A stretch of DNA of 63,431 bases, filler included, from Sphaeroforma arctica JP610 (lineage: Eukaryota): the NCBI RefSeq assembly GCF_001186125.1. It is 8 parts of 3 records of this genome, joined end to end, with 100 filler letters (N's around TTAATTAATTAA, not from the genome) between each part and the next. Parts side by side here need not be neighbours in the genome. Positions count along the whole stretch, not along the records: positions 9,870 to 30,758 come from NW_014040545.1; 7 more parts are not named here. One strand, 5' to 3'. The position numbers were made by a program, and so were the translations under genes. Below the pieces are notes generated by a model. The model saw only the letters and a list, made by a program, of their open reading frames with translations. It did not search any database and had not been told where the DNA came from. Below, piece after piece: positions 2,357 to 48,086 of this stretch (its first letter is position 1; every line of letters begins with the position of its first letter).

Positions 2357-2605
2357 TGTAGTAAGTATACGCTAGATAATTGTATCTCAACGTTCTCCTT
2401 CCTCAGGGAGGGGGACATTGTTCATTTATTAATAATTATAAACAGTAATCCTAAGATGAATGACTCTTAAAATGAGTCATTAGTCATGTGCTGTGAAACC
2501 AGCAAAACCATAAAACCCAGTTTATCAGATTATTCTGATAAACTGTAAAACTTGTAATAAACCTAAAATAATCAAATAAATCTAAGTACTTGTATTCTGA
2601 CCACA
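2357..2605 (-). repeat. 5' LTR, Gypsy family A
   Basis: Minus strand reads TGTGGTCAG...TACTACA; highly similar to 15300-15551; preceded by CGAA on the minus strand. Confidence 0.92.
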
Positions 2606-3579
2606 TTCGTCTACTAGGAAGTGGTGAAATCCACCTGTGAGATCGAGCTTTGAAAAAAAACTGCGCCCCTTGTAGGTTGGGTAACACTTCCTTTATTTTT
2701 GGTAACACAAACTTGTCTTGTTCATATTGGTACTTGATCTCACGTAAGTCTAGACCTGTCCTGACGTTTTTGAGTAGACCTGTTTGGTCATGTTCACCTG
2801 TTGATAACAAAGGTAGGTTCACCGTTGTTGGCTTGTCGCGTTTGTATATGTGGCCATCGTGAAGCTATCGTTACACATTCTCATCCGTTTGTGGAATATA
2901 TTTGTGCGGAACAAAGTTGACTTTAGCGTGCCTCATTTGTCTGACGTCGATTTCATTTGCAGGTACTGTGACTGTAGAGCCTGGTAGGTTGCAGTGAACG
3001 TCAGGAGGTATAATCGCGTTGGTGTCCAGGAGGTCTGTCAGTGACTCTCTGAAACCTTCTCGTTCATGCTCTGGGTCCTCTTCATGTGGTGTGAAGACCG
3101 ATTCCCATTTTGGATCTGTTGGTATAAGTGGATTGATTAAACCCGTTATATATATACATATGTATGGTAGAATGTCCATACCTGGAAGTATTGGTGTTTT
3201 CTTTTCTGGCAAGTCCAGTACCTCAAAACACTCTGCCTCCATAGTTAATGTCACAAACTTCTGTTGGTCCAGTGCGTTGTATTCGTGCATCTGTTTGTGC
3301 TAGTTGTATGTAACCCGGTTGCGCTCTAACAGAAAGATATAGTTCTGATACTACACTTTTGTCCATGCATGAGCGTTGTGCGCCCGAGTCTACTAGTGCA
3401 TTGTATGTATTGTCATTAATTTGTATGTCAATGTTTAAACGTTGGTCTCGTGGTGCGGGAAGTAAAGATAAAGGTTGATAGTTTATATCATTTGCATTTA
3501 TTAGCAACGTTTCTTCATCTGTGAATACATTGAGTCTGTCAGCCAGGTCAATCATGTTTGCTTCCGCCCACCAGTGTTT
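2606..3579 (-). pseudogene. pol: pol N-terminal part (aspartic protease + RT start), family B, frameshifted
   Basis: DSG protease motif; RT N-terminal motifs homologous to those in the 11461-13161 ORF (VNLPLL, VRVCLDMR, IPKV). Confidence 0.85.
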
Positions 3580-4991
3580 TCAGTGCTCATCACCTTCAGT
3601 GATGTCTTCCACCTTGCCAGATGTGATGGAGGATCTTGCTATCTGCACATCTTTCTTGGCTTGTTGCAAAGCCTTCTTAGCTTGATTTGCTTTCTTCTCG
3701 GGACTTTCGCTGTACCGATGCACGCTCTTCACGTGCTCCTTTCTTTTCTGAGTCTGCCCCCCGTGTTTGTGCTGGTTGTGCGTACCATTGCCTGTCTTGT
3801 GACGTTTGTTGGCGTTCATAGAGTTATCCTCTACCTGCGTGTTCGCCTGTGTATTGTTGATTTGATTTGCATTATTTGCAGCTCGCGCCTGATCCCTCAA
3901 CATTCGCTCAGCTTTTGTTACTGACGCTATTCGTATGTGTGTCTCAGTCATAGTAGGAAACTTGGCATGTTCGATGTCAGACAAGTGTCCTTGACTTCCA
4001 TCAGGTTGCTTGTCTCCTTTGATTAGGATGTCCACTACTGATTGTAGTCCATCGTATTCCAGTGCTAGGTACCTTTGTACTTTGAGGTTTTGGAAGTGTA
4101 TGGGTTCCTTGTCTGAATTGCGATAACGCTCCTCTAACATTGCCATTGTCTTGTGCACACGCTCGGTGCGCACTTCAACATTCATATTCTTATTCTGCAT
4201 GCCATTGATAAACTTCTCCAATAGATAGTCTACTGGGTGCGATCTGAGTCGATCAATAATGGTTATATTGAACTGCTCAGGATCAGTGAAGTGCCTGGTT
4301 GTTTGTGTCTTAGAGTCTCTTATGTTATTGAGAACTGCTTTGGTTTCTCCGTTGCATCAGTGGAATCTAATAGCCTTCTCACTAGTGCTGGATACTGACA
4401 CAATGGCATTGACGTAGCTAAGAATAGATCACTACATTGTGTAATGAACTCTATGATATCCTCACAATTTTCCAATTTAAAGAAACTATCCATTGGCATT
4501 TTGGGAAACTCTGAAGTTTTGAGTATTTTCTTAAGAGGTGGTTCATTTATCTGGTCGCCTAATCGAGAACGCATGAGCTCTAGCTCACTAATGTACAGAC
4601 TGATTTGAATAAGTTTGTCTTCCTTATCATCACCGCAATCGTTGATCGCTTGATCATATCGTCGTCTGAGCTCCGCATCCACTAGTGGCATACGACGCTC
4701 TGGCTGTTGGTCATGTATGCCTACCCTCATCTTATGTAGAGCCGGTATGGGCACCTGTGCAGTTTGTTCCAATTTGGATACAAGCCGACTCACCAAGACA
4801 TGATTGCCTTGACAGATACTCTTGTCTATTTCTAGACGCATTGCTGAGGCTGCGATGGGTACCCCTACCGGTGTGGGTTGACCCGAGCTACTGCCTGGGC
4901 TTGCCTCCCCCCTTGGGCTGGCTCCCACGTCACCCGCGCTTTCACTACCCTCCCCTCCATCGTATACGCTTGTGCTGGTTGCCGTTGGCAT
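3580..4991 (-). pseudogene. gag: gag-like ORF of family B, split by a frameshift near 4320
   Basis: Two long ORFs lie between the LTR/leader and the protease. Assigned by position; no diagnostic motif recognised. Confidence 0.6.
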
Positions 4992-5285
4992 TTTTAGAAG
5001 TCTATGCGGATGTGTGGGTGGTAGTGGATTATTAGTGAAGACTAAGGATATCTTGCCTTCCCTAGATTTTGCTTTAAGTTTTTTGTATACTTGATCAGGA
5101 TCTAATTTGCCTTAGCGTGTGTTCGTGTAATATTCGAGTCTTGTCTTTTAGAATAGCGTAGCACTAGTGGTGTCTATTTTTGAATGTTGCCCTGTGTTTG
5201 CACTTTGATGGTAGACTTGTTGTAATTACCCTAAAGGTCTCGTGCTACGTGCTCTATTGAATTCACTTTGTGTACATCTGATTCT

Positions 5286-6330: not shown

Positions 6331-6670
6331 TGTAGAGTATAGAGAGTAGCTGAAAGATACGAGACATTGGAATACAATAGACCTCTTCTTAAGTACGGAT
6401 ATCTCAGCTAGGAAAAGTCTCCAGTCTGATAGAACCGAAATGAGTCTTTATTTGTGTTTTCACTAGACTCAGGGTTTACTCGAGTGTTTCTCTCACACGC
6501 GGGAGTCCCGGTATATCTTTCCGGTTATAGCGCTAATATTTCTGATGACTCTAATACCAGAAATATTCCAATACTAATTCCAAAACCCAGTATTTGATTA
6601 ATCTGGGTTATGGGGTTTGTATTGGCTTTTTGATAATCTCTTTTTGATAATCTGGTTTCTAGATGCTACA
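6331..6670 (-). repeat. 5' LTR, Gypsy family B
   Basis: Minus strand reads TGTAGCATC...ACTCTACA; clearly homologous to, but diverged from, 17932-18252 (shared AGTCATCAGAAATATTAGCG, CTGAGTCTAGTGAA, GACTTTTCCTAGCTGAGATA, AGAAGAGGTCTATTGTAT). Confidence 0.85.
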
Positions 6671-8640: not shown

Positions 8641-9320
8641 TGTTAGAGTGCAATGTGGTAGACTTTAAATTAAAGTGCATGTGTATGTATTTATTTATGA
8701 CCTCACCTTTGGGTTTATAATCAAGGTGTTTGTGCTAGTGTTCAGCCGCTTGGACTGGCCAGGGTGAAAACTCATATGGTCAGTATGAGAAACCTTATGC
8801 AGGAAACTATGACACTTTGAAGCTGTTCTATTTCGACTTCTCTGCAATTTAATTTCACGCTGATCACACGACATCTTTCCGCATAGGTTGTGACTCGCAT
8901 AGAACAGCAGCTATTTTTAGAGTGTTCCGGTTGGCAGACTTCGTCCACTCTCGGGAGCTTGTTGAGAAACCTAATCTGCTCTCGGAAGTCAGTTAAGTAT
9001 TAACTCAACTCTCAGGAGTAATTTAAGCAACTTGATTAGCTCTGAGGGTTTCCTGCTGTAAAATCTGGCCTGAGACCTGTAGTCTCTCACTCCGCCTCAA
9101 TTTCACAGTCAAGGGCTGAAGTCTGAAGGCTGAAAAGTGAAGACTGAAAACTGATGAAGGCTGAAGGCTGAAGACTGAAGATCTGGATTGTGAAATTGTT
9201 GACTCTGTAGATGGATCGGACGAAAAGTGTTGAACCGATCAATTCCTGTCAAAAAAAAGTTGACGTATTGGATTTGTTGAGGATTGACTCATCGAGTAAC
9301 GAACACAGGGATGACTTAAT
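8641..9320 (-). mobile_element. Copia-type 3' LTR (8641-9089) plus PPT and 3' internal remnant
   Basis: Minus strand reads TTGAGGCGGAG|TGAGAGACTACA...CTCTAACA; similar to 23584-24500 and 26413-26905. Confidence 0.8.
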
Positions 9321-9653
9321 ATCGGAGTAGAAGTAGTTCACACCGAATTCACGATATGATCCGACAAGTAGGGCATACTTCCGCACGAGCTTCGACGGAA
9401 GAGGAAGCACGACAAGATATTGTCGAGGTGATGTGTTCACGCCGAGACTCATCCGTCACTCGGAGTGTGAGCTGAAGTGGTTGGGAATGGGTAAGCCCGA
9501 TTTGCAAGGACAATCGTCAAGGCCCGGTTTATTCGTTGATCGAGCTCTAGGTTTGAAAAGGGTGTGTATGTGGTGGGGCGATATATTTTAAATCCGCCTA
9601 TAGTTCGATCTCACACATTTCTAAGACTCCAATTGAAATCAACTTTCTGCATC

Positions 9654-11319
9654 ATGTCCGACTCCCGACAAAGTCGTCGACAGCAGCACGTTAACCCTGA
9701 GCGCCGCAAGGAAGACGACATCGACGGACGCGGCACTAAGCGTCGCCAGCCCAATCCGGACCACATCAANNNNNNNNNNNNNNNNNNNNNNNNNNNNNNN
9801 NNNNNNNNNNNNNTTAATTAATTAANNNNNNNNNNNNNNNNNNNNNNNNNNNNNNNNNNNNNNNNNNNNGCACAAGAACAAGTATTAGCCAGACAGAACC
9901 CTCATGATAAGGAGGCGGTGAAGAATAGACAGGATCGATTAAGTACGAACCTGCGCCAACAACAGCAACGCCAGTGGGGCGAAAAAGAAGCGTCCAGTGA
10001 ATATGTACAGACACCTAAACGGCAAGAGAAGGAGACACCAGTGCCTCCGCCTACACCGGCTAGTATCGAGAAAAGCCGACAGGCGCTACACGCACGGATA
10101 CTACAATTAAGTGACGAGCTATGCCAAACAATCAAGGAGAATAACACGGCTCGAACTGAAGCTCTTCGGGGCGTGATTGAGACACTTCGAGCTACATTAG
10201 AGTCCCGACCAGTAGAGAAGCGTCTCGTACCTTCACCACGTACGTGACCTGATTGGCCGTCGAACAGATACTACCTACATGATATTATAGAACGGGACAC
10301 AAGAGGGGCTCTCCTCGAGGCGTTCAAGAACGCGCAAATCGCAGGGTTGGACGAGAGTTGGAACCTTACATAGTTTCATAAGGTACTATCTTACTTCAAG
10401 GCGGAGAAGTCAACACTGGACTACATCCGCGACAATTCTGAACGGTTGAAGACATGGACACCTCAGCTACAGATCGAACAGATCTGTTCGCACGAAACAC
10501 AAGCCACTGTCGATCCCGCGTTTCGCAAGTTAGCCAAGGGCCAAAGTCGGAACATGCACACTCCTCTTATGGAACAAATGTCACAGCTCATGGAGAACCA
10601 CAGGAGGGCACGTGAACGGTGCCAGACAGATGCCGACTTCCAACAGAATTTATTGAACCACTGCATTGTGCAACTGTTAGAAGAAGCTCTCAACGACCGT
10701 ACGTATGAACGTACAACTGATGGAGACACACGAGCTTATACAGCTGTTGAGCCTTGACATTCAGGATGCACAGCAACGTACGACAGCACGTCTCCAGAGT
10801 CGCAACAACCGCGAGGGCCCGACGACCAATGGAAGTCGCGACTACACCAATAGTCGCCCCAACCTACAGACGAGTAGACGACAAATGCAGAATTGGACTC
10901 AACGGTCCCAACCTACGGTACCAACGGCTTGTGTGGGGTGCCAGGCACAAGCGCCACCAGGTGGTAGGCACATCCCACGGTGTCATCATTTCAGGGCGTC
11001 GCAAGCGGTGAGCGCGGAGGGTCGGGCAAGGCTATACGACAACAACCGTCATTTGAGAGACGTACAATCGGTACACAGACCGTCCACAACATCAACCGCA
11101 GGACAGGGGCAGAATACATCCCAGACTAGAGACGTAGTCACAATACGTCCGACGCCTCAAGTACAGGTGAATGCGATTACACAGGACGGAGTCTTGGCTC
11201 TACCATCGGAAGCTACGGAGATCCATATCAACACGATTCTTCACGAAGACTTCGAGCACATGACGTCAACACCAAACCACGCCTATGAGACGTGGGAGTC
11301 GGTAGCCGATCACGCATGA
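9654..11319 (+). pseudogene. gag: gag of family A (spans an N gap; several stops and frameshifts)
   Basis: ORF fragments 9654-9769, 9918-10247, 10446-10757 and 10705-11319 lie upstream of the protease; C-x2-C...H...C cluster near 10930-10985. Confidence 0.65.
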
Positions 11320-14300
11320 GAGGTGAGGGTGTCTGAGTCGGATAGGAGCTTCATATTTGTTACCACGATTGGAGCAGTGATGGCAATACAAGACCCATTG
11401 CTGACGTCAGATAACTGAGTCTATATTCAAGTACAAATCAACAGACGTACGTTCAAATCCTTGATAGACACGGGAGCAAATAGAAGTTGTATCTCACAGA
11501 CATCCGCAGACCTCCTTGGCCGACCAATAACTCCGGCACCACCTGGGTCATTTATATATTTAGCTGACAAGGCGGTTCGAACTCCTCGACTGGGGACGAC
11601 GGAAGTGGTACCTATAAGGTACGGCACCAGAATTATCGACGGTTCATTGGAATTGATGAACTTGCCGGCTGGTATAGATGTCATAGTGGGGCAAGATATG
11701 TTGAAAGGCTTGGGCCTATACATAGGCGGTATCCGATCGCCACTTGCACCAATAGACCCCATACCACGCCGACAAGCACCTAACACGCCGGAACCCGTCG
11801 ATGTACGCCAACGGTTGGCACAAGATTTGGAAGCCAATGCGAAGATTGCCGACAACGCACGCTGTCGTCTGGAAGGGAGTGAGGTAACCATCCCAGTAAC
11901 CCATGAACAAGCGATGCAGATGCGTAAATCGACGCGTAACTTCGTATCCGATCGATGGCTCCCCTATGTGGATGAACAAGTGAAGAATTGGTTGACGGAT
12001 TTGGTGATTACGAAACGAACGACACCAACGACTGTTAATCTTCCTCTCCTTGCGGTACCGACATTCGATGCGGAAGGCAACGTCAAGAAGGTACGCGTGT
12101 GTTTAGATATGCGTGCCGTTAACGCGCTTATTCCTGGTATCCAGTTCTTGATCCCCAAGGTCAACGAACTCATATCTCGCCTCAAGAGTAAGAAGTACTA
12201 CACGACGCTGGACATATCGGCTGCATACCACAGGCTGCCCATCCATCCAGACTCACAATACTTATTTAGTTTTACACACGAACGTTATCAGTACTCGTTC
12301 ACATCAGCACCGTTCGGTCTTCGTGTACTCACGCAGCAGTTCCAACGTACCTTGAGTACGATACTTGATGGCTTACCGGTTCACCACTATATCGATGACA
12401 TAGTTATCGCTAGTGACGATTATGACGAACACGTTAGGACGGTGCAGAAGGTGATACAACGCTTAACATACCACAGTTTTAAGCTTAACCCTGCCAAGTG
12501 CCACTTCGCTATTTCCGAAGTCATGATCCTAGGGAAGAAAGTATCGGCACAAGGCATTGACATTGACCATGAAAAGCAGGCCAAGCTGATCGACTGGCCC
12601 ACACCACTACGGTGCAAAGATATAGCCTCGGCGTTGGGTTTAGCAAATTACCTCCACGAACATCTGCCTAATTTCGCGAACACGGTCGCACCCTTGCACG
12701 AATTTTGCAAACTCAAACCAAAGGAGTTGATAGGTGATCGTTGGGAGGAGAGACATGCACAGGCGTGGCAGGCAATGAAAGACGCAGTGGTGAATGCTGT
12801 GGCGCTACACTTTCCGGTCGACGGCATTCCTTTGAACTTGGAAACCGACGCTAGCGATTACGGTTTGGGGGGAGCGCTATTCCAATGGGTCGACGGTAAG
12901 AAACATTACTTAATGTTCTTTAGTAGGACTCTGAACCATGCGCAACAGAACTACGCCACACCTATGAAGGAGTTACTGGCATTGGTATATGTACTGACAC
13001 ATTTCAGGGAATACTTGGATGGGCAACGGTTTGCGGTCTTCACGGACCACAAGGCCCTTGTGTATATGAACATACAGCTCAAGCTCATCATATCATTGCG
13101 CCATTCAACTTCACCATATCGCATATACCAGGAGAGACAAATGTGCTCCCGGACATGTTAAGTAGAGTACACGAGGGGACAGCGGAGCAGGACGAACTCG
13201 AAATAACGTACACAGACTGCTGGTAGTTATTCCCTAGTTACTTTGAACAAGCGCAACAACACTTCGGACCGAATGACATGGATGTATTTGCGGACCCAAC
13301 CAACGCTCAGCTTCCTCGGTTCTGGACGAAGGATGATGGGGGAGGAGCGTTTGCCCACGACTGGTCGATAGTCGATGGATGGATGGACCCGCCATGGAAA
13401 CAGATACACAGGATGTTACGCAAGATACGAGCCGACGGCGCACGGGCCACAGTATGTCTACCATGGGTACCAAGAGCACCATGGTTTGACCTGTTCAAGC
13501 AGTTATTGCAGACAGAACCGGTGCTGGTACCACGGACACCACACACGTTCCTCAAGTACGCTAAGTACGCATGTGGGAAGACACCATGGGGTCATACGGT
13601 AGTAGCACGGGTGGGTCCTCCCAATGGGTTCAAACTGGACCCGCTGTTTTCACAGCGACTTGGTTATGCAGAACCAAAGCATACAAAATATGTCATGTGC
13701 TTAGATACAGCGCGAGAAATCTCAGTGGCAATGGCAGATGCAGAGGGTCAACCGGCGTTTGAACAAGCGAGTCCGGAGGAGAAACAGCGCCGTACGCAAC
13801 TCACGCAAGCGCAACACGAACAAGGACATCATGGGGCGGCGGACACAGTCCAACAACTTCGTCAGAGCGGTCATGTTTGGCCAGGGGCACTTGAGTTAGC
13901 CACAGAGGTTAAGCGGCAATGTGGCACATGTTTGGGACAGGACACACTTAGTAAAGTTTCCACCCGATGATTAGCATCGATGTACGCTACGCGTGGGACC
14001 ATATTCAAGTGGACTACATCCCTATGCCACTGGAGTCCAGACGCAAGAACAATTATATTCTTCACGTCTTGGACATCGCCACAGGCTATTCTATCCTTCG
14101 AGCCACACCGGACAAGACAAAGGAAACCACGACACAGACACTCATAGAGATTTTTGGCTAACATGGCTTCCCTCGTAAAATCCAAACAGACATGGGGAAT
14201 GAGTTCACTAACAAGATAGTGGAGCTACTGGTGCAAGAAGTGGGGATGCTACATAAGGTGTCTCCACCATATCGACCCCAAGTGCTGGGCGCGGCGGAAC

Positions 14301-15066
14301 GACGTCATAAGGAGATTACACGTTCTATTCGACAATGCTGTGAGGCAGTTCCCCTTCGATGGGACGAACGCCTTCCGTTTACGATGCTATACCAGAACCT
14401 TCGGATATCCCGCCGCCATAAAAGTGCACCGTTTAGCGTGTACTTTGGCCGCCGCCATGTTCCGTTCGCCGATTTCACGGACGAGTTACCGGATTCTCAG
14501 CCGATGACGAATGACACCTGGGCACAACGATTAGACCAGTTACAGGACACTATATTGCCGACCCTCCACCACATTACCAAGAAGTATACAGGCAAGGTTA
14601 CGACGACATTTGACCGCCTGCATGCTCACGATTGGTACATTTCGTCGAAGGAGATGTGGTCATGGTATGATCAGAAGGCCGAACAACTAAGGCTATGCGG
14701 CCATTGTTTGGACCATATGTAGTCAAAGCTAGACACGGTCAACGCTATGAGTTAGCGAACAAAGATGGTTCCGCCCCACCAGAATTCAAGGACAAACCGG
14801 TACGGGTGGAACTCCTCCGTTTAGTGCATAGACACACAGACCCACCAATCAACGAAGACTTATGGACCGAAGGAGGGGTTGAGTTTTGCCATATTATCAC
14901 ACACCGTACGAATGGTGAGACGGGGAAATTAAAATACCTGGTGAGATGGCGAGAAGGCAAACCAACGTGGGAAACAGCAGAAGCTTTTGATGATGCCAAC
15001 GATATCGCGGCCTACCACAAACCTTCGCAGACACGGACACGTAAACGCCAACGCGCACAAATCTAA
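11320..15066 (+). pseudogene. pol: pol polyprotein of family A (protease, RT, RNase H, Dam-like methyltransferase, integrase, chromodomain), disrupted
   Basis: ORF pieces 11461-13161, 13278-13970, 13967-14161, 14192-14722 and 14695-15066 carry the motifs in order; stops/frameshifts at ~11416, ~13085, 13224, ~13945, 14159 and ~14630. Confidence 0.93.
13215..13620 (+). other. Dam-like amino-methyltransferase domain inside family A pol
   Basis: DCW*LFPSYFEQAQQHFGPNDMDVFADPTNAQLPRFW...AFAHDW...WMDPPWKQIHRMLRKI...ATVCLPWVPRAPWF; DPPW at 13386-13397; same frame as the RNase H end and the integrase HHCC. Confidence 0.88.
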
Positions 15067-15299: not shown

Positions 15300-15551
15300 T
15301 GTGGTCAGAATACAAGTACTTAGATTTTTTTTTGATTATTTTAGGTTTATTACAAGTTTTTACAGCTTATCAGAATAATCTGATAAACTGGGTTTTATGA
15401 TTTTGCTGATTTTACAGCACATGACTAAAGACTCATTTTAAGAGACATTCATCTTAGGATTACTGTTTATAATTATTAATAAATGAACAACGTCCCCCTC
15501 CCTGAGGAGGGAGAACGTTGAGATACAGTTATCTAGCGTATACTTACTACA
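15300..15551 (+). repeat. 3' LTR, Gypsy family A
   Basis: Follows the PPT; TGTGGT...ACTACA; contains AATAAA; followed by CGAA. Confidence 0.93.
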
Positions 15552-16555
15552 CGAAGCAAGCCAACAATTCTTCACATTCTCGTGGAGAGGAGCGCAATAC
15601 TCATTCAAGTCTGCGCCGTTTGGACTACACTCACTCACAGCACATTTCCAGAGAGTCATGGCAAATCTGCTCATAGATATCAAAGGAGTGTAAGTGTATG
15701 TATATGACATAGTCATTGCGAGTCTTACAGAAGAAGAACACCACAAGACAGTTCGTGAAGTAATCAAACGACTAAACAGCGCGAACTTCCGACTCAATCA
15801 CAACAAGTGTGCCTTCGCGGTCAAAGTGGTCAACATTCTTGGGGTGAAAGTCATCACACAGGGCCTCTAAGCAGACCCCGAGAAACAGAAAAGAATGATG
15901 GACTGGCCACTACCCAGGACAAAAAGAAATCTGCACAAAGCAGTGGGACTAGCAAATTACATGCGAGACCATGTCCCCAACTTTGCCCATACAACGAAAC
16001 ACTTTCGGAACCTAATGAAAGGAAAAATGAACCAGAACATATCCATGTTATGGACACTGGAACTAATCAAGAAGTGGGAAGAACTCAAAGAAGGCATCGC
16101 CTGTTCATCGACGCTAGCATACCCTGTTGATGGGGTACCGTTTCAAATTATCAATGATGCTAGTGACTATGGCATAGGAGGGTGTTTATTTCAAGTCATT
16201 GATGGAGTCAGAAGAGACATTTTCTACTTCTCAAAAGGCTTGAATCCAGCACAACAACGCTATGGCACAAATACCAAAGAGCTACTAGCACTGGTATATA
16301 GCCTGGAACATTTCTCCGAATACATCAAAGGGGGGGGGACATAACACTGTGGACAGATCACAAAGTGCTCACGCAAATGAACAGTCAACAGACGTTACAC
16401 CCAATGCTAGCCAAGTGGATAGCAAAAACGTTCCACCACCACTTCTCCATCATACATGTCCCAGAAAAGTATTACAGCAGGCGAATGAGGCAACACATAA
16501 TAGCCAAGAGCACACCACCTTGGAAACGAACATGCCCATAACCATCTCGGCTATA

Positions 16556-16935
16556 GACTGGATGTTACATCCCAGATTCTACCAAGAAACGGAACGAAGA
16601 TTTGGGAAGTTCACAGTATATCTGTTTGCATCGGCACACAATGCGCACACAAATAAATACTACACCAAAGAACAGAATGCGCTAAAACAAAAATGGGCGC
16701 AAGAAGTTAATGCACGGGTGAATCCACCATGGGAACTCATACCTGATATCCTTGACAAAGTCATTGAAGAGGCAACCAGCATCACGATATGTGTACCATA
16801 CTACCCCAAAGTTCTTGTCCTTACTAGAAGAAGACCCGATACTAGTGGAAAACACTAACAACACGTTCCTCAAAGAGGGCAAGAAGGCTTGCGGCAAGAC
16901 CCCATGGGGTGTCACATTAGTCGCAAAGATAGGAG
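16556..16935 (+). other. Dam-like amino-methyltransferase domain inside family B pol
   Basis: DWMLHPRFYQETERRFGKFTVYLFASAHNAHTNKYYTKEQNALKQKW...VNPPWELIPDILDKV...ITICVPYYPK, then after a frameshift at ~16810 LLEEDPILV...ACGKTPWGVTLVAKIG; NPPW at 16721-16732. Confidence 0.88.
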
Positions 16936-17931
16936 CTAAGTCTCCATACTTCGACTCAACGCGAGAACAACTTGCTATACACGTTGCAGTGTCGGAACCA
17001 GTTCACTCTGGAGATGCACCACAGGCAACAGAATATGAGACACGTGTCAGCTTCAATGAGCAATACCACAACTTGGGACATTACACTTCTGAGGAAACAA
17101 TACACAAGTTACAAACAGATGGACATGATTGGGCTGATATACAACAACATGTACACAAGTTCATTGACGGATGTATACCATGTCTCAAAAATAAAATACA
17201 CAAGAAGGGATTTCACCCCTTACAATCAATTACAGCCGCGTATCCAAGCGACAGAGTCCAAGTGGATACCATAGGGTTACTTTTGGATTCCAATAGAGGA
17301 CACACATACGTGTTAGTATACCTTGACGTATACTCATCATAACTCCATACTCTACACACAGGCCTCCATTCAAGGTGATAATCCCAGGAGTTTCTACTGC
17401 AATGGACAGATGGGAAGCGTACATGGAAGCATGAATCAGAAATCGGATATGCTGATGTTCTAACACTATACAGTCAACGCACTTGACCCAAACGAAGGCA
17501 ATCAAGGCCGACGAAATCAACAGCAACGAGCACTGATGTAAGATTAGCGAGCAACAGAAGGTGCACAAGGCGGACGTAGCCAAGTTTCACTGATACCAAG
17601 GTCACTCCCACTTTTCTCATCTGGAAGCATGCTCCGCCCGAAAGCCAGAGGGATAAGGACAAAGACTGAGTTTTAGAGCCACCGTTTTCTAAATCAAGTT
17701 GAGATCAACCGAGAGCACAGGTCAAGACTAACTACGTGGGTAAGAACTCCCGTCATAGTACAATTAATGAATAATGTATGTAAGCATAAATAATGGAGAC
17801 AAGTTTTCATCTTTACCCCCTTAAGGACAAGTCATTTTTCCCTGTACAAAAAACACCAAGCACTAGGTAATTTAGTACTATAAGATGCCACTTTCTACTT
17901 CTACGAGGCTAGAAGCACAAATTTGGGGGGC

Positions 17932-18252
17932 TGTAACATCTAAGGACCATATTATCGTCGATTTTAAACGCAAAACCACAGAATCATCAAATACTGTTGA
18001 GTTTTAAAATTAGAATTCAAATATTCCTGATAATAGTCATCAGAAATATTAGCGGTAGAACCGATAAGCTGTACCGGGACTCCGCGTGGGAGAGAAACGC
18101 TCAAGTAGAAACCTGAGTCTAGTGAATCAGAAGATATAAATAAAGGCTCAGTTCGGTTCTCTCAGACTTTGGACTTTTCCTAGCTGAGATAACTGTACTT
18201 GAGAAGAGGTCTATTGTATCCTTTGAGTCTCAGCTAATCTCTGCACTCTACA
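17932..18252 (+). repeat. 3' LTR, Gypsy family B
   Basis: TGTAACA...CTCTACA after a G-rich PPT; homologous to the reverse complement of 6331-6670. Confidence 0.85.
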
Positions 18253-18866: not shown

Positions 18867-21379
18867 TACATAATTTTTTTTTAATACTTAGAAAATGTTG
18901 CACTTTTGCATTTTTACACACACGTTTATTACATCGATCTTTATTGTTGTTGTTCATGTTGTAGCACTTTTGTCAATTGCTTGTCCTTTCTGATCTCACG
19001 TATTAGGCCCGCAATGCTTAGAGTTTCACCAAATGCATGATAGAGCTTCTCAATCGACAAATCTATCGAATTACCGCGGGCGTTGAGCCTCTCCATTGCC
19101 CTCCAGAAAGTTAGTCGAAAGCTATAAACTCCCTTTACACTACCTCTCTCTGCACGCGTAAAAAGACTCGCCGGTTTGTTTCCATTTATACCTCTCTCGT
19201 ACTCGTCCCAGAGTATTCTGAGCGATTTCGGACCGTCTATCAACTCTGCGGGACGATTATCGCTGTTGTTACTGTTGCTGCTTTCACCATTGTTGTGTGT
19301 GCTCTCACTATTTGCATTATCGTTGTTGTTTGGCTGGTTTCCGCTAGTAGCAATTTGTCTTGCACGGAAATTCATGGTGTTGAACTGGCTCATCAGCACA
19401 CGCCGTGTGCGCTTGAGCTCCGCCCTCAGCTGCTGAATTCGTGCGCAACCTTTTGCTTCGGAAGTCTGTAACATTTGTTTTAAATTTATAACTTCTGCCA
19501 TCAAGGATATAATTTGATTTTGTAATTCTGTAACATTGGTAGCATTAGGATTAGCATTGGAACTGATGCCTTCTACCTCCTGAGCACAGAAATCGTCAGC
19601 ACCTGCAGTGATGGTGACAACTGGCACACGTAAAACAACCTTCCGTATTTCGTCATCTGATATATTTGGACTGATATTCTTGATCAGGGTGATACAATGT
19701 TCATGAAAAGTATCATGGACGAGAATACTTCTATCAAGACCCAGCTACAACGCTACTGTAGCTATTATTCTTTTGTGGTGCGCGTGCAAAAAAGGAAGAT
19801 CGTATAGACCTTCAACAACTGTACTCAAAACTTCAGTGGTAACAATAGCACTAAAATCATTGCTAACACGATACTTACAGGCCCCACGCGGTCCACAAAG
19901 AATTTCAGACACTCTCGCATCAGGGAACGGCATAAGATCACTTGAATAGGTATCCACTTGTCTAGTCCCTCGTATTTGACTTCCGCCCATCTTACTCTTT
20001 GCCCATCTACCTCGAGCCTCCGCATGATCTTTTGTGAGTCCTCGTCGCTGTATATATGTTGCACTACATTTACGCATACTATGCGTACCAAGTTCATTTA
20101 TCTCTCCTTTGGCCTTAAACTCGGGTAAAGAGATAATCTTTTTGATTCTACTGCGTGACACATCGGTTCTTAATTTCTCGTCTCGACCAGTCGATCCATT
20201 GGATGTGAACATATAGCCGAGATCTAAGTTGCTAAATGTTGAACGACCACGAAGTCGATCAATGATATGTGCTGTGAGTGCTGATAGTGCACAAATATAT
20301 GGGTCTAGAGATCCAAGAACAACTTGTCTACTCACTTGCGATTTCTTAGCAATGTTTTTGCTCCTAGCTATCTCAAGAAAAACCTCATCAGGATGGTCTT
20401 CGTTGTATTTTAGATTACTGTATGTGATATTCGTCGCATCATCTACACGACATATCAACTGGAAAGTCCATGTCCATAAACCATGTAGCCCGCTATCCTG
20501 GAAAGCAGTATTTTCGATGTTGATCGTTAGAATAGACATAATCTCATCGAACTTTAGGGGTCGTTTGGATAAGTCCGCATTTCTTTCACCTCTTGTCTCA
20601 AAACGTTCGATCGCTTTGAGCAAGTCATTTACCTGTCCAGAACGAGTTGGATTCCCTTTCATTTCCACTGGATCCCACTCCAAGCGTTTACGTGGCATAA
20701 ATTTAGATATCGATTTTTTTTATGAACTCTAAGCCAGCTTTCCTACGTTGTGAAGGGTAGTCTTCTGGTCCTGCATCTTCCGTCCCATAGGCCAACTTAT
20801 TGAAGTAGTCACAAATATCTGATGGCAAGATGTCTATTAACTCAGAATATAGTATCATTTGCGTGTCAGGATACTCTTCGTCCCAGTTTTTTTTTCTGGC
20901 CTCCAATACTCCAAAAACCGTCTCATGTTCTTGACATATTCTACCATAACCTTAGCCTGCACCATCTTTATGTGAACTAGTATGCTATACTTATGAACAA
21001 TACATGCACTTAGTGTGATTTTTGTTTAATTTTTAATTTTTACTATCTTGCAGCTTCACACGGTGTTAAATGTGTATACGACCTTTGCGAAAATGTTGTT
21101 TTTTTCACGCGGGATTTACGCCAAAGGAATTTCAGGGATTTCAAAAGGTCAAACAGGGTTGTACAAAACGCTACATTTGTACTACCTACTGTATGACTTA
21201 TGAATTGATGAAAGCTGAAAAATATATTCTTGGAGTAAAAAACACCTTTGCAATTTGAGTCAATTTGTTAAAGTAGTTGCAAAGTTATGTAATGAAAAGT
21301 AGTACAGCCTATCGGATCCAACGAATCGTCATTATACCATCGCGGAGTATGACCATGGTCGTACAACCGATATAATACA
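18867..21379 (-). mobile_element. Crypton-type tyrosine-recombinase DNA transposon (~2.5 kb) with TACA direct repeats
   Basis: TACA at 18867-18870 and 21376-21379; removing the insert restores the Copia LTR; contains a YR ORF, with no RT and no TIRs. Confidence 0.85.
18941..20965 (-). pseudogene. Tyrosine recombinase + C-terminal GCR1_C-like domain (Crypton protein)
   Basis: GNPTRS..VN, ICRVDD (R), SKNI (K), LGTHSMRK (HxxR), RGRW, VDTY (Y); C-terminal LWDEYERGINGNKPA..F...ERG...YSFR..FW. One in-frame TAG (19745-19747) and two homopolymer frameshifts (~20715, ~20890). Confidence 0.85.
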
Positions 21380-21839: not shown

Positions 21840-22660
21840 CAGGAGATGGATGAAGAAATGTGACATGCTTGGTGGACGGAAGCTAATATGGTAAATATGG
21901 TATACATTGTGAATGCACACACTGATGGAGAAACGTTGTTAATAAACGTAAATGATATTCTTACGCACCTTATTTTGTTCTTTATCTCCTAGCCTATTCC
22001 ACGGCACTACACGGTGCAGACCCGATCCGTACCACAGAGATGGGTACGCTACTTCTTAGTAGGTCAGCAAGCGAATACATGGCAAACTCGATGGTGTCAG
22101 TGTTGTGTGAGCACCGGCCTAAATTAACCCAGCGCATATCTTTCATCGTCGACTCACTTGGCCCAAGCTTCAAACGGGAATTTACTGACCACTTCTTTCC
22201 ATCGATCTTTCCCGAACCACTACAACGGCTATGAGAGCCTTACCATACACACATCGTAACTTATCGCGTCTAAATTTTTTTATTTTATCCCTAACCTATG
22301 AGACCAAAGCAATGCACTGGAAGATTCAGGAGCATAATGTCCATGCATGGATCACAGCGTAGTGAATGAAATTTACTCGTCAGTAAAGGCACAACCCGGC
22401 TATATTCAACTAGCACAATCTGATGTAAGAGTTTAGCGTACAGACTCGACAGAAATATGCGAAATAAACTGTGGCGGAGAAAACCGTCAAACTCTCGACC
22501 TCCCCAACAAGAAGTCACCCATACTTTTAGGTATGGATATTATACCATACTGACATATATTTAGCAGGGATAATTAACCCACTTATACCAACGGATACAA
22601 ATTGGAATCACTTCTTACACCCCATTAATTAGACCTCGAACATGTACAAGAAGATTTTGT
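21840..22660 (+). pseudogene. Gypsy family B gag-end/protease relic
   Basis: EEM*HAWWTEANM...TLLINVNDI and NALEDSGA...QPGYIQLAQSD...PILLGMDIIPY match 3090-3590 (minus). Confidence 0.75.
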
Positions 22661-29925: not shown

Positions 29926-30758
29926 TTATTGGCGTTGTGCCGCTTTCTTCTTCTGGCGAGTTTGCTCGGCTTTTTGGTATGCAGCGATATCATTCGGATC
30001 GTCAAAAGCTTCGGCTGACTCCCAAGTTGGATCACCTTCCCGCCAGCGTACCAAGTATTCTGTATTTCCTGTGGAATCATTCTGTCTATGTCGAATGATG
30101 TAACGGAAAGAGGAACTATCCTGCCACATATGATCTTCTAAAGGGTTTTAGGTGGCACTATGGACTAATCGCAAAAGTTCCACTCTAACTGGTTTATATT
30201 TGAAAGTATCTGGAAGTGAACCATCCTTGTGTGTCAGTTCATATCCTTGTCCCTGTCTGGCTTTGACAACGTATGGTCCAAACATTGGTCGCATTGCTTT
30301 GGTTGTGCGACCTTCGGACAGCACCATTACCACATCCCATGGTTGAAAGGCGATAAAATCGTAAGCATGGAGGCGATCAAACTGCCTGGATAGTGTATCT
30401 GCGTATTTCTGCGTGACCTTGTAAAGCGTCGGCAAGATAGTGTCGTACAAACGATCCAGCCGGTGTGCCCAAGCCTCATTGGTGACCGGCTGATTCCCCG
30501 GAAAGTCATCCGTGAAATCAGCAAACGGAACATGACGGCGACCGAAGTCAGCACTGAATGGTGCTGTCTTGTGTCGCCAAGATATTCGGAGGTTCTGGCA
30601 CAGCATAATAAGTGGTAGTCGGACATCCCATGCAGTAGGTAAAGGTTCACATAGCTTGCGAACTCCTTCGTGTATGTCTCTGTGTCTTCTCTCCGCTGCT
30701 CCCAGAACCTGAGGACAATTTGGTGGCGACTTCGCATGCACCACTCCAACTTCTTGAG
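29926..30758 (-). pseudogene. pol: Gypsy family A-like integrase C-terminus + chromodomain, cut by an N gap
   Basis: GAAERRHRDI...WDVRLP...FGRRHVPFADF...MFGPYVVKAR; YLVRWREGDPTWESAEAFDDPNDIAAY; homologous to 14250-15066. Confidence 0.92.
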
Positions 30759-43992: not shown

Positions 43993-46900
43993 ATGTATGT
44001 ACAGGGTATATCAGCATATCTCATCTTGACACTAGTGTGGGGATCAATCGTTTCTGCGGATGCAGATTTCCCAATAGCTACTTTTACCGGAAATGTCAAT
44101 CCTTGGCAGGATACGGATGCCCCACAATGTGATTCGGGCTCACCAGATGGAAATTTCGTATTTCGTATTCGAGGAAAGGCCAGTACAAGGCACCCAGGTG
44201 AGGTCTTGTACGTCTTACGAAGAAATTCTATACGTGCTGGTATAAGAATGGTTTTCAGGTGACGGCCTTTTGATCGCGCCGGCGTTTCTGTGTATTGTGT
44301 TAGAAAAGTATCCAGCAGTTTGCCCTGCCGAAGTCGAATAGCCGCATCTGCAAAACGTGCGATATAGCGTGTGGCACATGTTTATTGGTTGGACTGGCTC
44401 AAAGTTTTAACCATGTCTAATATTGATTTCCACTTGCATACTGTGCTTTAACTTGTAGACCACAGAGAAGAGCTGGATTCAGAAGTGCGATGATGGATCG
44501 AAGTCTATGCGATTCCTCATTATAGACAAGAGCGATCCTGCGAGCCCCCTATATAGTGCGAATGAATATTTTGCCAAGCCAGATCCCACTTCGGACTCCA
44601 CGTGCGAAGCCCACGGTGGGATAACAGATAGGTGGGTATTTGTATGTCAATGACAATTTTATATTTGCCAGTCACGTTACTTCCACAAGTGAACTACGGC
44701 CGAGTGAATGTTTCGCGTATCAAGTATTAACAGTACATTTGGGATACTTCATTTTCAGTACAAAAGACGATGGCAAATCTACGCTAGAGACGGATGCACA
44801 AACTGGTGCAGTAATCTCTCAGCAGGTAATTACGTCTACTTGTGACACTGGCGACACTTCCGAAATACGCAAAAAAAAAACATTGACAAGTGTCTCCGGA
44901 TTGGAATTCACATATATTTATGCCGGTTATCACCATGAGGTATGCGTTGTTCAACAAATTCGACAATTCGTGCCGATGCCGTTGGTTCGGTTAGTACACC
45001 TCAGGATCATGCTAGCTGTTTTGTTCGTCCATCTATCAGAAATCTGGGAGAGTTCTAATGTTGTTGCCCTATTTTATCACGAGTCAGATCGATCACGTTG
45101 ACCATATCAAGAACAGTGGTAACAACGGTCAGAGAGGTACTACAACTACAGATAGTAATACCACATTTGAATGGACGACGACCCCGCACTATTTTCCCGA
45201 CCACACACGTCTTGACACGAAGTATACTTGTAAACTGCCGGACACAACCGTGGTTACAAGTTTTCAAGGACGTGCTCCTCCAAACTCAACGGTGCCCACT
45301 AGCTCGTTGCCGAATAACATCAAACCACATTCTCTAACGGCAGTACCGAAACAATAACAAAAAGAAGGATGACGCTTGTTACACATTTGCCAGCCGGTAA
45401 CTCCGGATCATGTCCGACGAGTGGTTCGACATCTAGAGATATGCGAGATAAGTGTTGTCGTCGCACTGTTACAGTTACTTACAGATCTTCTAATTTTTTT
45501 AATGGCAACCCAACAACCAGCGAAACTACCAAGACAATATATCGATGTAAGTGCGGAGGGTATGTTCTGGAAACAAGTGGATCGCGGGTGACAGAGGACA
45601 CTGAAACTGCTTGTAGTGAAGAAACGCCTGATGGGTGCAAGTCTAAGACCGAATCCAGTCACACTACTGAAAGGCGACAGAAAGTGGATACTACGACGAC
45701 GACAGTCACATGTTCGGGCGCTTGTACTACAACAACTGTTAACTCCCAATGCCACAACGCAAATGGTATAGATAACGACAAGAGTAACGAGGAACGTACG
45801 CGCGTATGTCCTATTACGTACGAAAACAAACCTGCTACGCAAACTGAAGTGGGTACAACTTATAATAATGGTAGTAGAGAATTAACCATGACCATCGAAG
45901 GTACAGATAACGGTTTCAGATTTGGCTATACACAAGTGCATGTGGCGAACCCGGGGAGTGAATTTACAATCATAAGTACTACTTAATTGAACGAAATTAG
46001 CGGCGGTGGACGTGGAAATATTGTGGAACTACCACCCCCTGTGCTTTGTGAGTACAACCCGTGGAGTGACTGGACTGATTGCGCTGTCGCGGAAGGCTGT
46101 TTGATCACACGAACTCGAGGGGGTAAGGTAACAAACCCGTTCACCTGCACGCCATCGACAGACTTGGCGCATGAGAAGGCTTGTACAAAGCCTGGTTGTG
46201 GTGGTGTGCCGAAAGACTGCTCCGCTGCCCTTTTGGCTGACGCTGATCTTTGCTCAGATTCGAATCAAACGGTAAAAATCAGCGCTTTGGATACTGTCTG
46301 TGATTGTGCTGATTGGTAAGTTATTGCGATATGAAATTTGACATTTTGCGCTCCACTTTCACCAACCTTGGGTGTACACGAAAATTTATTCTCGCTGTTA
46401 TTGTTGCACAATATTTGGGATGAACTTGATGATTTGTTTTTGTGAAAATCAAGGATTGTGTCTTTGTCTACAACTATTGTCAAATGTCAACTTTAAAAAG
46501 TGAATATACAGTATGATGACGATCATGAAACCTGAATTTTGAATAAACAGTTTGACGACATGCTGCGCGAAATCAGTTGTGCCTGTCACAGGCGAAGAGG
46601 TGAAGACTTGTGCGATGTTGCTCGCTGACGATCCTGAACTGTGCTCGTCGAATGGAGAAGTAGATACTGACGACCTGGACATCGATTGTGATAAAAACTG
46701 TGATATTAACTGCTGCAAGCACACGGAAACGCCGGTGACTGGGGAGAGTGTGGATACCTGTTTCATGCTGCTGGTGAAGGACCATGATCTGTGTCAAGGT
46801 TACATTGTGGACACTGACTCGCTTGACAACACGTGTGAGACGAATTGCGATAAAAACTGTTGCAAGGAAGAAACTCTACCAGCCACAGATTCGGAGACCA

Positions 46901-48086
46901 AGCGTACCTGCGCCATGTGGTTAGCTGACAATTCCGGGTTGTGCACGGATCAAGGGAACATCGTGGACAAGGATTCATTAAGCAAATGTCTGTGAGAATG
47001 ACTGCAACGATGCCCGAAGCTCGGACCACCTGTGCAGCTGTGCATCTGAATGGGGCGCTAGACTGCGGCGAAGAACTGTTTGATGAGGCGAGTGCTTACA
47101 CTTACTGTGAGGGCGATGAGGATTGTACTGCAGCGTGCTGTATTGCTAAGATTGAGGTTCCTTCACTTACCTACACCCATCGGGAGACTGTTTCTACGCA
47201 TACTGCAACCATCGCAAGTGAAGACCACACCCATGTGGTGACCAGCTCGGCGATAGTGAATCCTGCCACCGAGACAACGCACGGGCACACGACCACATAC
47301 TTGATTCCGGAGCCCCATCCCACCGAAATCGCTTCGTTAGGCACAACTGTGACTATTGAATATACACACACGCCGGTGGTTACAGAGACTGTGGCTACCG
47401 TGAGTACAACTGAGTACTATTCGCACGTTGAAACCGGTCACATCCCGCATCCTGACGGTAACATCGTACTGCACACCACCAGAACTGAGAGCAGTCACCC
47501 TACTCAATCAGAGACCGATGAACCTACAACCACCACGCGTGCCAGTGAACGTACGACTGAACGTACCACCGAATCGACCACTGAGCGTACTACCACTACT
47601 CGCGAACCCGAGCCAACGACTGAACGTACTACCACTCGGGCACCCGAGCCAACCACCGAGACCATTCAGAAACCCGAGCCCACTCCGGAGGAGAAGTACT
47701 ACTGTGGTGATATCAGCTACTACAAATGCTCAACATACAGAACGAGCTTGAAGTGCTGCAAGAACTCGGACAAATGTACCGGTTGGGGCAACTGCAAATG
47801 CACCTCAACCACCTGCTGCGACAAGACGGTCTCAGGCGCTAAGGACCCCGATCGCGAGATCACCGATGGCAGTGACGAGAACAACGCTTACTGTGGGAGT
47901 GTCAGCAACAACAAGTGCGAAGGCTACAAGACCAGTCGGAAGTGCTGTAAGAGTGGCACGGGAAAGTGTGGCGGTTGGGCTGTGGAGAAGTGCTCATCTA
48001 GTTACTGCTGTGACGGGACGGTGAAAGCCACCAACAGCAACTGCAGACGGGGCAGCCGTCGGCGTGAGTGCAACGGCAGGCGTTAA
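43993..48086 (+). pseudogene. Large secreted Cys-rich protein gene (signal peptide, TSP1-like motif, Cys repeats, Thr/Glu mucin-like stalk, duplicated C-terminal Cys domain) with disruptions
   Basis: Signal peptide MYVQGISAYLILTLVWGSIVSA; GT-AG introns near 44198-44458, 44631-44758 and 46316-46550; CEYNPWSDWTDC; C[AF]MLL..D..LC repeats; TTERTT/PEPT repeats; in-frame stops/frameshifts at ~45355, 45984 and ~46990. Confidence 0.7.

Follow-up and report, generated by a model that had tools for sequence, protein, structure and literature searches.

Ichthyosporean LTR retroelements bearing a Dam-like methyltransferase (MTase), the DAM-LTR lineage, were described by Fernandez-Moreno et al. in May 2026 (bioRxiv 10.64898/2026.05.21.726589). 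In that preprint, the lineage is reported as being without chromodomains, following a screen at E 1e-5. DAM-LTRs were found there to exceed other LTR elements in 6mA and in transcription in Sphaeroforma arctica and Abeoforma whisleri, host AMT1 and 6mA-enriched copies were reported in S. arctica, and representative TE DAMs gave no rise of 6mA in dam-deficient E. coli. Other accounts, in their accessible parts, assigned Dam to DIRS elements, the methyltransferases of Gypsy being of the cytosine type (PMC5890265, PMC6338049), and the available sections of Iyer et al. assign the DIRS1-type MTase to the PCIF1 clade and judge its copies to be likely inactive (PMC4738411).

Here, we analysed a stretch of 63,431 nucleotides from S. 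arctica JP610 (the window), in which N runs surrounding the linker TTAATTAATTAA connect the contigs at seven gaps. It holds copies of two element families, A and B, whose identity as DAM-LTRs we regard as close to certain. Their features are as follows.

2357..2605, minus strand: family A 5' LTR, TG...CA, with CGAA before it
2607..5111, minus strand: family B gag, protease and N-terminal half of the reverse transcriptase (RT), stopping at the likely family A insertion
6331..6670, minus strand: family B-type LTR, 340 bp, upstream of B gag
11404..15063, plus strand: family A pol, in the order protease, RT, RNase H, MTase, integrase, chromodomain, with stops and frameshifts
13218..13625, plus strand: family A Dam-like domain, with DVFA, DPPW (13386-13397) and the ACGKTPWG tail
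14884..15030, plus strand: family A divergent chromodomain
15300..15551, plus strand: family A 3' LTR, with a G-run polypurine tract before it and CGAA after it
15553..16469, plus strand: family B C-terminal half of RT, tether and RNase H, with stops
16556..16934, plus strand: family B putative Dam-like (PF05869) N6-adenine methyltransferase domain, from Pfam and motifs
17052..17339, plus strand: H2C2 zinc finger and first part of the core of the family B integrase
17382..17483, plus strand: remainder of the family B chromodomain (C-terminal portion alone), matching the P0004 tail at 52%
17932..18252, plus strand: family B 3' LTR, TG...CA, 321 bp, with a G-run polypurine tract just before it
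29929..30756, minus strand: fragment of an A-related integrase and chromodomain, located where a contig ends, with no linked MTase seen

A sequence-only reading of this locus had proposed that B, a second and divergent Gypsy family, carries the same MTase as A between RNase H and the HHCC finger. This proved correct, and every motif that it quoted is present: DWMLHPRFY at 16556, FGKFTVYLFASAHNA, KYYTKEQNALKQKW, NPPW at 16721-16732 and TICVPYY, then, in a different frame, TFLK...ACGKTPWGVTLVAKIG (16863-16934) and YHNLGH...CIPC. In both B (E 2.7e-12) and A (E 2.5e-7), Pfam Dam passed the curated cut-off, and its match lies between those of RT_RNaseH and Integrase_H2C2. The families also differ in LTRs and gag, as had been stated: the LTRs are unrelated (local score 18) and the gag regions fail to align (best E 0.56). 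The identity of A to B amounted to 56/113 in the C-terminal half of RT, 28/80 in the tether, 36/64 in RNase H, 47/124 in the MTase, 11/45 in H2C2 and 13/31 at the start of the integrase core. The two MTases are homologous, with four-fold sites close to saturation (9/26; NG86 was saturated).

Both elements have the Ty3/Gypsy pol order of protease, RT, RNase H and integrase. Element A shows direct TG...CA LTRs, a polypurine tract and the CGAA duplication, which lies on the outer side of each LTR, and its LTRs are 94.8% identical to each other; in B, LTRs and a polypurine tract only were recognized. The two B-type LTRs align with 264 matches, 46 mismatches and 41 gap columns, and no matching target duplication was found in their flanks; this absence and an identity of about 85% outside gaps would fit a greater age of B. 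Neither 5' LTR has a tRNA-type TGG primer site after it; each is followed by a T run (2356-2340 and 6330-6310, both minus strand), and a search for a self-priming match gave nothing longer than 6-7 bases. Because the mapping of P0004, a B-family protein, splits across the borders of the A LTRs (residues to about 325 at 3558-2606 on the minus strand, residues from 321 on at 15541 onward on the plus strand), A is likely inserted within the RT of B, with the contig at 1-9769 inverted in the window relative to the next one (gap at 9770).

Several other pieces were noted in the window. A decayed B-like integrase (H2C2, core and C-terminus; 8639-6794, minus strand), interrupted by a repeat, lies directly upstream of the B-type LTR, and the two are possibly tandem elements sharing one LTR. 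A further A-like 5' region with a gag start occupies 9000-9769 (plus strand; 79% to 566-404). At 22311-22658 (plus strand) lies part of a B-like protease (56% to P0004). Open frames of 220-390 codons at 18941-20719 (minus strand), 45318-48086 and 53311-54474 (both plus strand) had no Pfam match above cut-off.

The window copies of A and B are both dead, and the motifs survive at the family level. In B, a frameshift lies in a G run near 16332 within the piece with RT, tether and RNase H, the MTase is split between frames at about 16810-16812, the remainder of the integrase core is absent, and motif I (region at 16619) reads YLFA, its D being present in 132 of 152 related domains; extra stops and frameshifts occur elsewhere in pol of both copies. 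The MTase defects of B are private to the window copy, because other copies differ at 16619 (57134/58120 of depth, or 98%, in run X1, and likewise in X12 and X15) and have extra letters at the MTase frameshift. Among the 40 of 166 differences that were listed, 19 fell inside the B MTase, 10 synonymous and 9 nonsynonymous, a share from which little can be drawn. The 1259 contigs matching in X1 point to B being a many-copy family. P0004 itself is a natural uninterrupted protein of 1288 aa, matching the B pieces of the window at 62-86%, with the order protease-RT-RNase H-Dam-H2C2-rve, DLFA and NPPW. The proposal that catalytic and SAM-binding motifs are kept stands for the families and their intact relatives, not for the two decayed window copies. 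The catalytic NPP motif of DAM-LTRs is NPPW in B and its family, whereas DPPW in motif IV is unique to A among 152 domains (NPPW in 61, NPPF in 40). DxFA, which we infer to be the SAM-binding motif, is kept together with NPPW in P0004 and Abeoforma P0008, and CNPPW is present in P0005 and P0009.

Conservation of the MTase was compared with that of its neighbours, as the earlier reading had suggested. Over nine long clade proteins (eight near-complete pols and the N-terminally short P0178; 36 pairs), mean pairwise identity was 0.43 for the MTase, 0.44 for RT, 0.40 for RNase H, 0.37 for rve and 0.25 for the chromodomain. Identity of the MTase equal to that of RT indicates that, as far as alignments can tell, it is under protein-level constraint like the core enzymes, and neutral evolution does not describe it. 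The most conserved columns of the clade MTase are D19, F21, P55 and P56, each kept in at least 90% of 56 rows. Such conservation reflects selection on the protein; it is not a proof of catalysis.

Homologues within Gypsy pol were sought elsewhere, and many uninterrupted pols with the order RNase H-MTase-integrase were found. An index-free protein search with the MTase of A gave 1455 matches at E<=1e-3, and a word-indexed search with it among longer proteins yielded none of 66 candidates. Uninterrupted pols with Dam in an integrase-encoding LTR element include P0177, in the same order as P0004, and P0178. The nearest named proteins are all from S. arctica: SARC_09702 (88%) and SARC_07150 (65%) for A, and SARC_09892 for B. 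In an RT-RNase H search, Dam was present in 3 of 39 matches, which were the three closest (63-100%), the other 36 having 30-36% identity. Scans of metagenomes for DNA of intact copies found none in 132 stretches, and one of 32 gave a weak 34-residue match (L001); in the ESM Atlas, Dam at 14% of one cluster is a lead only.

In the RT-RNase H tree (a quick tree, from which 13 near-duplicate proteins had been removed), the A and B families are sisters (97) within a clade of 15 rows (96 SH-aLRT) that includes Abeoforma P0005 and P0009. Dam is carried by 14 of these rows, the fifteenth being a short fragment; P0172, labelled as lacking Dam, is a 227-aa fragment identical to P0040. A second tree of 30 chosen rows gave 96/100 for A with the B family and 95.3/97 for the clade with P0018. 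An MTase-bearing Gypsy clade, as had been postulated, is thus recovered. In the MTase tree (FastTree, 148 columns, 152 domains), A, B and proteins of Sphaeroforma, Abeoforma and Pirum form a 25-row clade with local support of 94; its members include P0017 and P0002 of S. arctica, P0005, P0008 and P0009 of A. whisleri and P0011 of P. gemmata. The grouping of Pirum with A and B comes from this tree only, which has few columns; A and B were not resolved as sisters in it. A TPW/HPW tail pattern occurs in 18 of the 152 domains, 14 of them in the A/B clade.

The same tree separates all 21 sampled integrase-linked Dam domains, together with P0069, P0023 and P0031, from nearly all DIRS-like ones (support 94). 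In a query-biased sample with an arbitrary root, this split hints that transfers from DIRS to LTR elements may have been fewer than published (at least four). P0069, a single record, is a 1248-aa uninterrupted Ty1/Copia-type pol with gag_pre-integrase, rve, SH3, Dam (E 1.4e-12) and RVT_2, and it keeps DxFA and NPPF. The main text of the preprint does not use "copia", and one of its clades has DAM between integrase and RT (bioRxiv 10.64898/2026.05.21.726589); that clade may be of the P0069 type. P0023 and P0031 (the latter with five cluster members) are long polyproteins with protease, Exo_endo_phos, Dam, RT, RNase H, H2C2 and a weak rve, that is, integrase-bearing elements in which RT is preceded by Dam and a domain of the AP-endonuclease type. 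In P0064, RNase H-Dam is followed by a weak Tudor-like match, a possible reader domain next to a retroelement Dam.

The ichthyosporean DAM-LTR lineage very probably has a degenerate C-terminal chromodomain in which part of the aromatic cage is missing. The tail of A matched Pfam Chromo at E 4.8e-5 and 23.6 bits (cut-off 25.1), the A-related fragment at 29929..30756 reached 27.2 bits, above the cut-off, and E values of 0.004, 0.015 and 0.001 were obtained for P0178, P0177 and P0155; the B remnant (17382..17483) by itself had no Pfam match. All 38 PDB sequence matches of the A tail were chromodomain proteins. When 13 clade proteins were scanned with a profile made from 10 outside chromodomains, the best match fell in the C-terminal segment in 12, at 0.3-26.7 bits; 11 of these had at least 5 bits, Abeoforma P0009 had 20.0, and reversed controls gave no more than 0.4 bits. 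The profile missed P0018, and P0008 is truncated. Among 29 proteins without a Pfam chromodomain call, three scored at least 10 bits, at C-terminal chromo-like segments. The A tail was modelled as three strands and a helix (pLDDT 78), a fold not fully independent, since the model alignment took in outside chromodomains; its structure matches, among those listed, were only chromodomains, none at E<=0.001.

In alignment A3, the cage residue W45 is kept in 24 of 24 rows, and the GY loop, which bears Y48, is 3-4 residues shorter in all clade rows. The first cage aromatic, at the Y24 position, is absent in A, B and P0004 and aromatic in several other clade members. The clade chromodomains fall outside group I, defined by the cage aromatics Y24, W45 and Y48. 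The published absence of a chromodomain looks like an effect of the detection threshold, as clade proteins score mostly below the Pfam cut-off. Given the chromodomains of A, of the B family and of P0009, "lacks a chromodomain" does not describe these elements, though they belong to the clade by descent. Our literature searches listed no other paper on ichthyosporean chromodomain elements.

The MTase core was modelled over 134 residues with pLDDT 95, and all fold matches listed were SAM-dependent methyltransferases or chains of complexes holding one; at the sequence level, its profile matched nothing in the PDB under E 1. Foldseek put PCIF1/CAPAM of human or zebrafish at ranks 1-6, with TMq 0.64-0.68; E. 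coli Dam had 0.38. In VIA, ranks 1-7 were RNA adenine methyltransferases, with Z 10.4, rmsd 3.1 and 128 aligned residues for PCIF1/CAPAM, and Z 8.2, rmsd 2.8 and 105 for E. coli Dam. The match covers the core only, the WW and helical domains of PCIF1 being absent from the retroelement MTase. This result agrees with the placing of the DIRS domain in the PCIF1 clade in the available text of Iyer et al. (PMC4738411). That PCIF1 fits the model better than E. coli Dam makes an RNA or hybrid substrate conceivable and would be a reason to try both; it is not evidence of function.

Starting from the domain order, the homology of A and B, the RT-equal conservation, the clade membership and the predicted folds, we infer the following course. 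In intact copies, the Dam-family MTase-fold domain would use SAM and put N6-methyladenine on the newly made DNA of the element. As a piece of Pol, it would enter the particle together with RT and integrase and there encounter the RNA:DNA hybrid and nascent cDNA; the modelled core has no separate target-recognition domain, and specificity could come from tethering in the particle. Once marks had entered the genome, host AMT1 would maintain them, and they would keep new insertions transcribed, as in the model of the preprint. The cage-deficient chromodomain may help integrase to engage chromatin, without HP1-style reading of methyl-lysine. We give this mechanism as a whole, a Pol-borne MTase marking the element's own new DNA, an even chance. 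In its favour is the excess of 6mA and transcription on DAM-LTRs given in the preprint. Against it speak the negative E. coli assay, the judgement of Iyer et al. on DIRS1 copies, PCIF1 as the best fold match, the broken copies and the atypical motif IV of A; moreover, the 6mA enrichment is correlative, and transcription with host AMT1 alone could cause it.

A PCIF1-type RNA adenine MTase might instead mark the transcript of the element, at an internal A or one next to the cap, and thereby affect how stable the transcript is or how it is translated or packaged, with DNA 6mA being secondary to transcription. The structural rankings, the PCIF1-clade placement in the accessible text of PMC4738411 and the failure of the DNA assay in E. 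coli favour this view, and neither PCIF1, CAPAM nor m6A is mentioned in the main text of the preprint. We nevertheless find it unlikely, as identity to PCIF1 is 12-15%, PCIF1 is ahead of the next rows by a Z of just about 1, the model spans about a fifth of PCIF1 (TMt 0.20-0.22) with its cap-binding parts absent, a shared fold shows no function, and sequence profiles call the domain Dam. In addition, Pol is made after, and at a lower level than, the RNA that would have to be marked. It is also rather unlikely that the domain is kept without catalysis, to bind SAM or nucleic acid or as a spacer between RNase H and integrase; the same heterologous assay and the view of DIRS copies as inactive, given in available parts of PMC4738411, would fit such a role, yet conservation in the clade peaks at the columns of putative SAM binding and catalysis, needless for a mere spacer.

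That the MTase is a chance or neutral passenger, or was captured separately by A and B, might be thought from its N-terminal part, where just 23/81 residues are identical, and from the MTase tree, in which A and B do not pair. This we consider extremely improbable: the domain has the same position in all clade members and an identity equal to that of RT with synonymous sites saturated, and clade membership is congruent between the RT-RNase H and MTase trees. Neutral passage thus appears largely refuted on these comparisons, and nearly excluded. Other identities were also rejected: DIRS, since H2C2 and rve follow the MTase and no tyrosine recombinase replaces the DDE integrase; an independent MTase gene nested in pol, and an MTase-pol chimera made by the assembly, both from the Pfam order in A, B and uninterrupted relatives; and EpiLTR, with its additional C5 cytosine methyltransferase, as P0004, P0177, P0178 and the scanned ORFs of the window had no DNMT Pfam match.

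The core finding is already contained in the May 2026 preprint, by which the sequence-only reading, though right, was anticipated; our analysis is an independent confirmation with domain-level numbers on conservation. Beyond the main text of the preprint, it adds the correction on chromodomains, the PCIF1-like fold and the likely nesting of A in the RT of B. A chromodomain in this lineage would make the writer-plus-reader architecture more general among DAM-LTRs than reported. P0004 and P0177 are natural uninterrupted B-family proteins usable as reagents, and, with the assay on duplex DNA being negative, the structural hint favours trying RNA and hybrid substrates. An enzyme acting on the intermediate of its own element, if that is the case here, would illustrate a way for a transposon to label itself in advance as active chromatin. 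A bolder proposal, which we think improbable, is that ichthyosporean DAM-LTRs are cryptic chromodomain elements whose PCIF1-type MTase acts on their own RNA or RNA:DNA intermediate, not on duplex DNA; if true, these close animal relatives would harbour a retrotransposon-borne m6A writer joined to a chromatin reader that has no cage.

Among known systems, A and B resemble most the published ichthyosporean DAM-LTR lineage, sharing a Ty3/Gypsy pol with DAM and an MTase clade with proteins of all three named species, and differ from its description by the divergent chromodomain in A, the B family and A. whisleri P0009. With the DAM-chromovirus-like clade of Chlorophyta (bioRxiv 10.64898/2026.05.21.726589), they share DAM and a C-terminal chromodomain in a Gypsy pol; in contrast, Dam pols with canonical chromodomains (P0015, P0030, P0070), which may not be that Chlorophyta clade, fall outside the A/B clade on the RT-RNase H tree and keep the GY loop. 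Like the group II chromodomains of plant chromoviruses, in the accessible part of PMC3350952 reported from plants only, those of the A/B clade have lost Y24 and/or Y48 and kept W45, whereas the loop shortened by 3-4 residues and the aromatic Y24 position in several members are their own. To the DIRS1-type MTase of the PCIF1 clade (PMC4738411, available sections), they are alike in domain family, in the place just after RNase H and in the predicted fold, but a DDE integrase comes next in A and B, which have direct TG...CA LTRs and, in A, a 4-bp target duplication.
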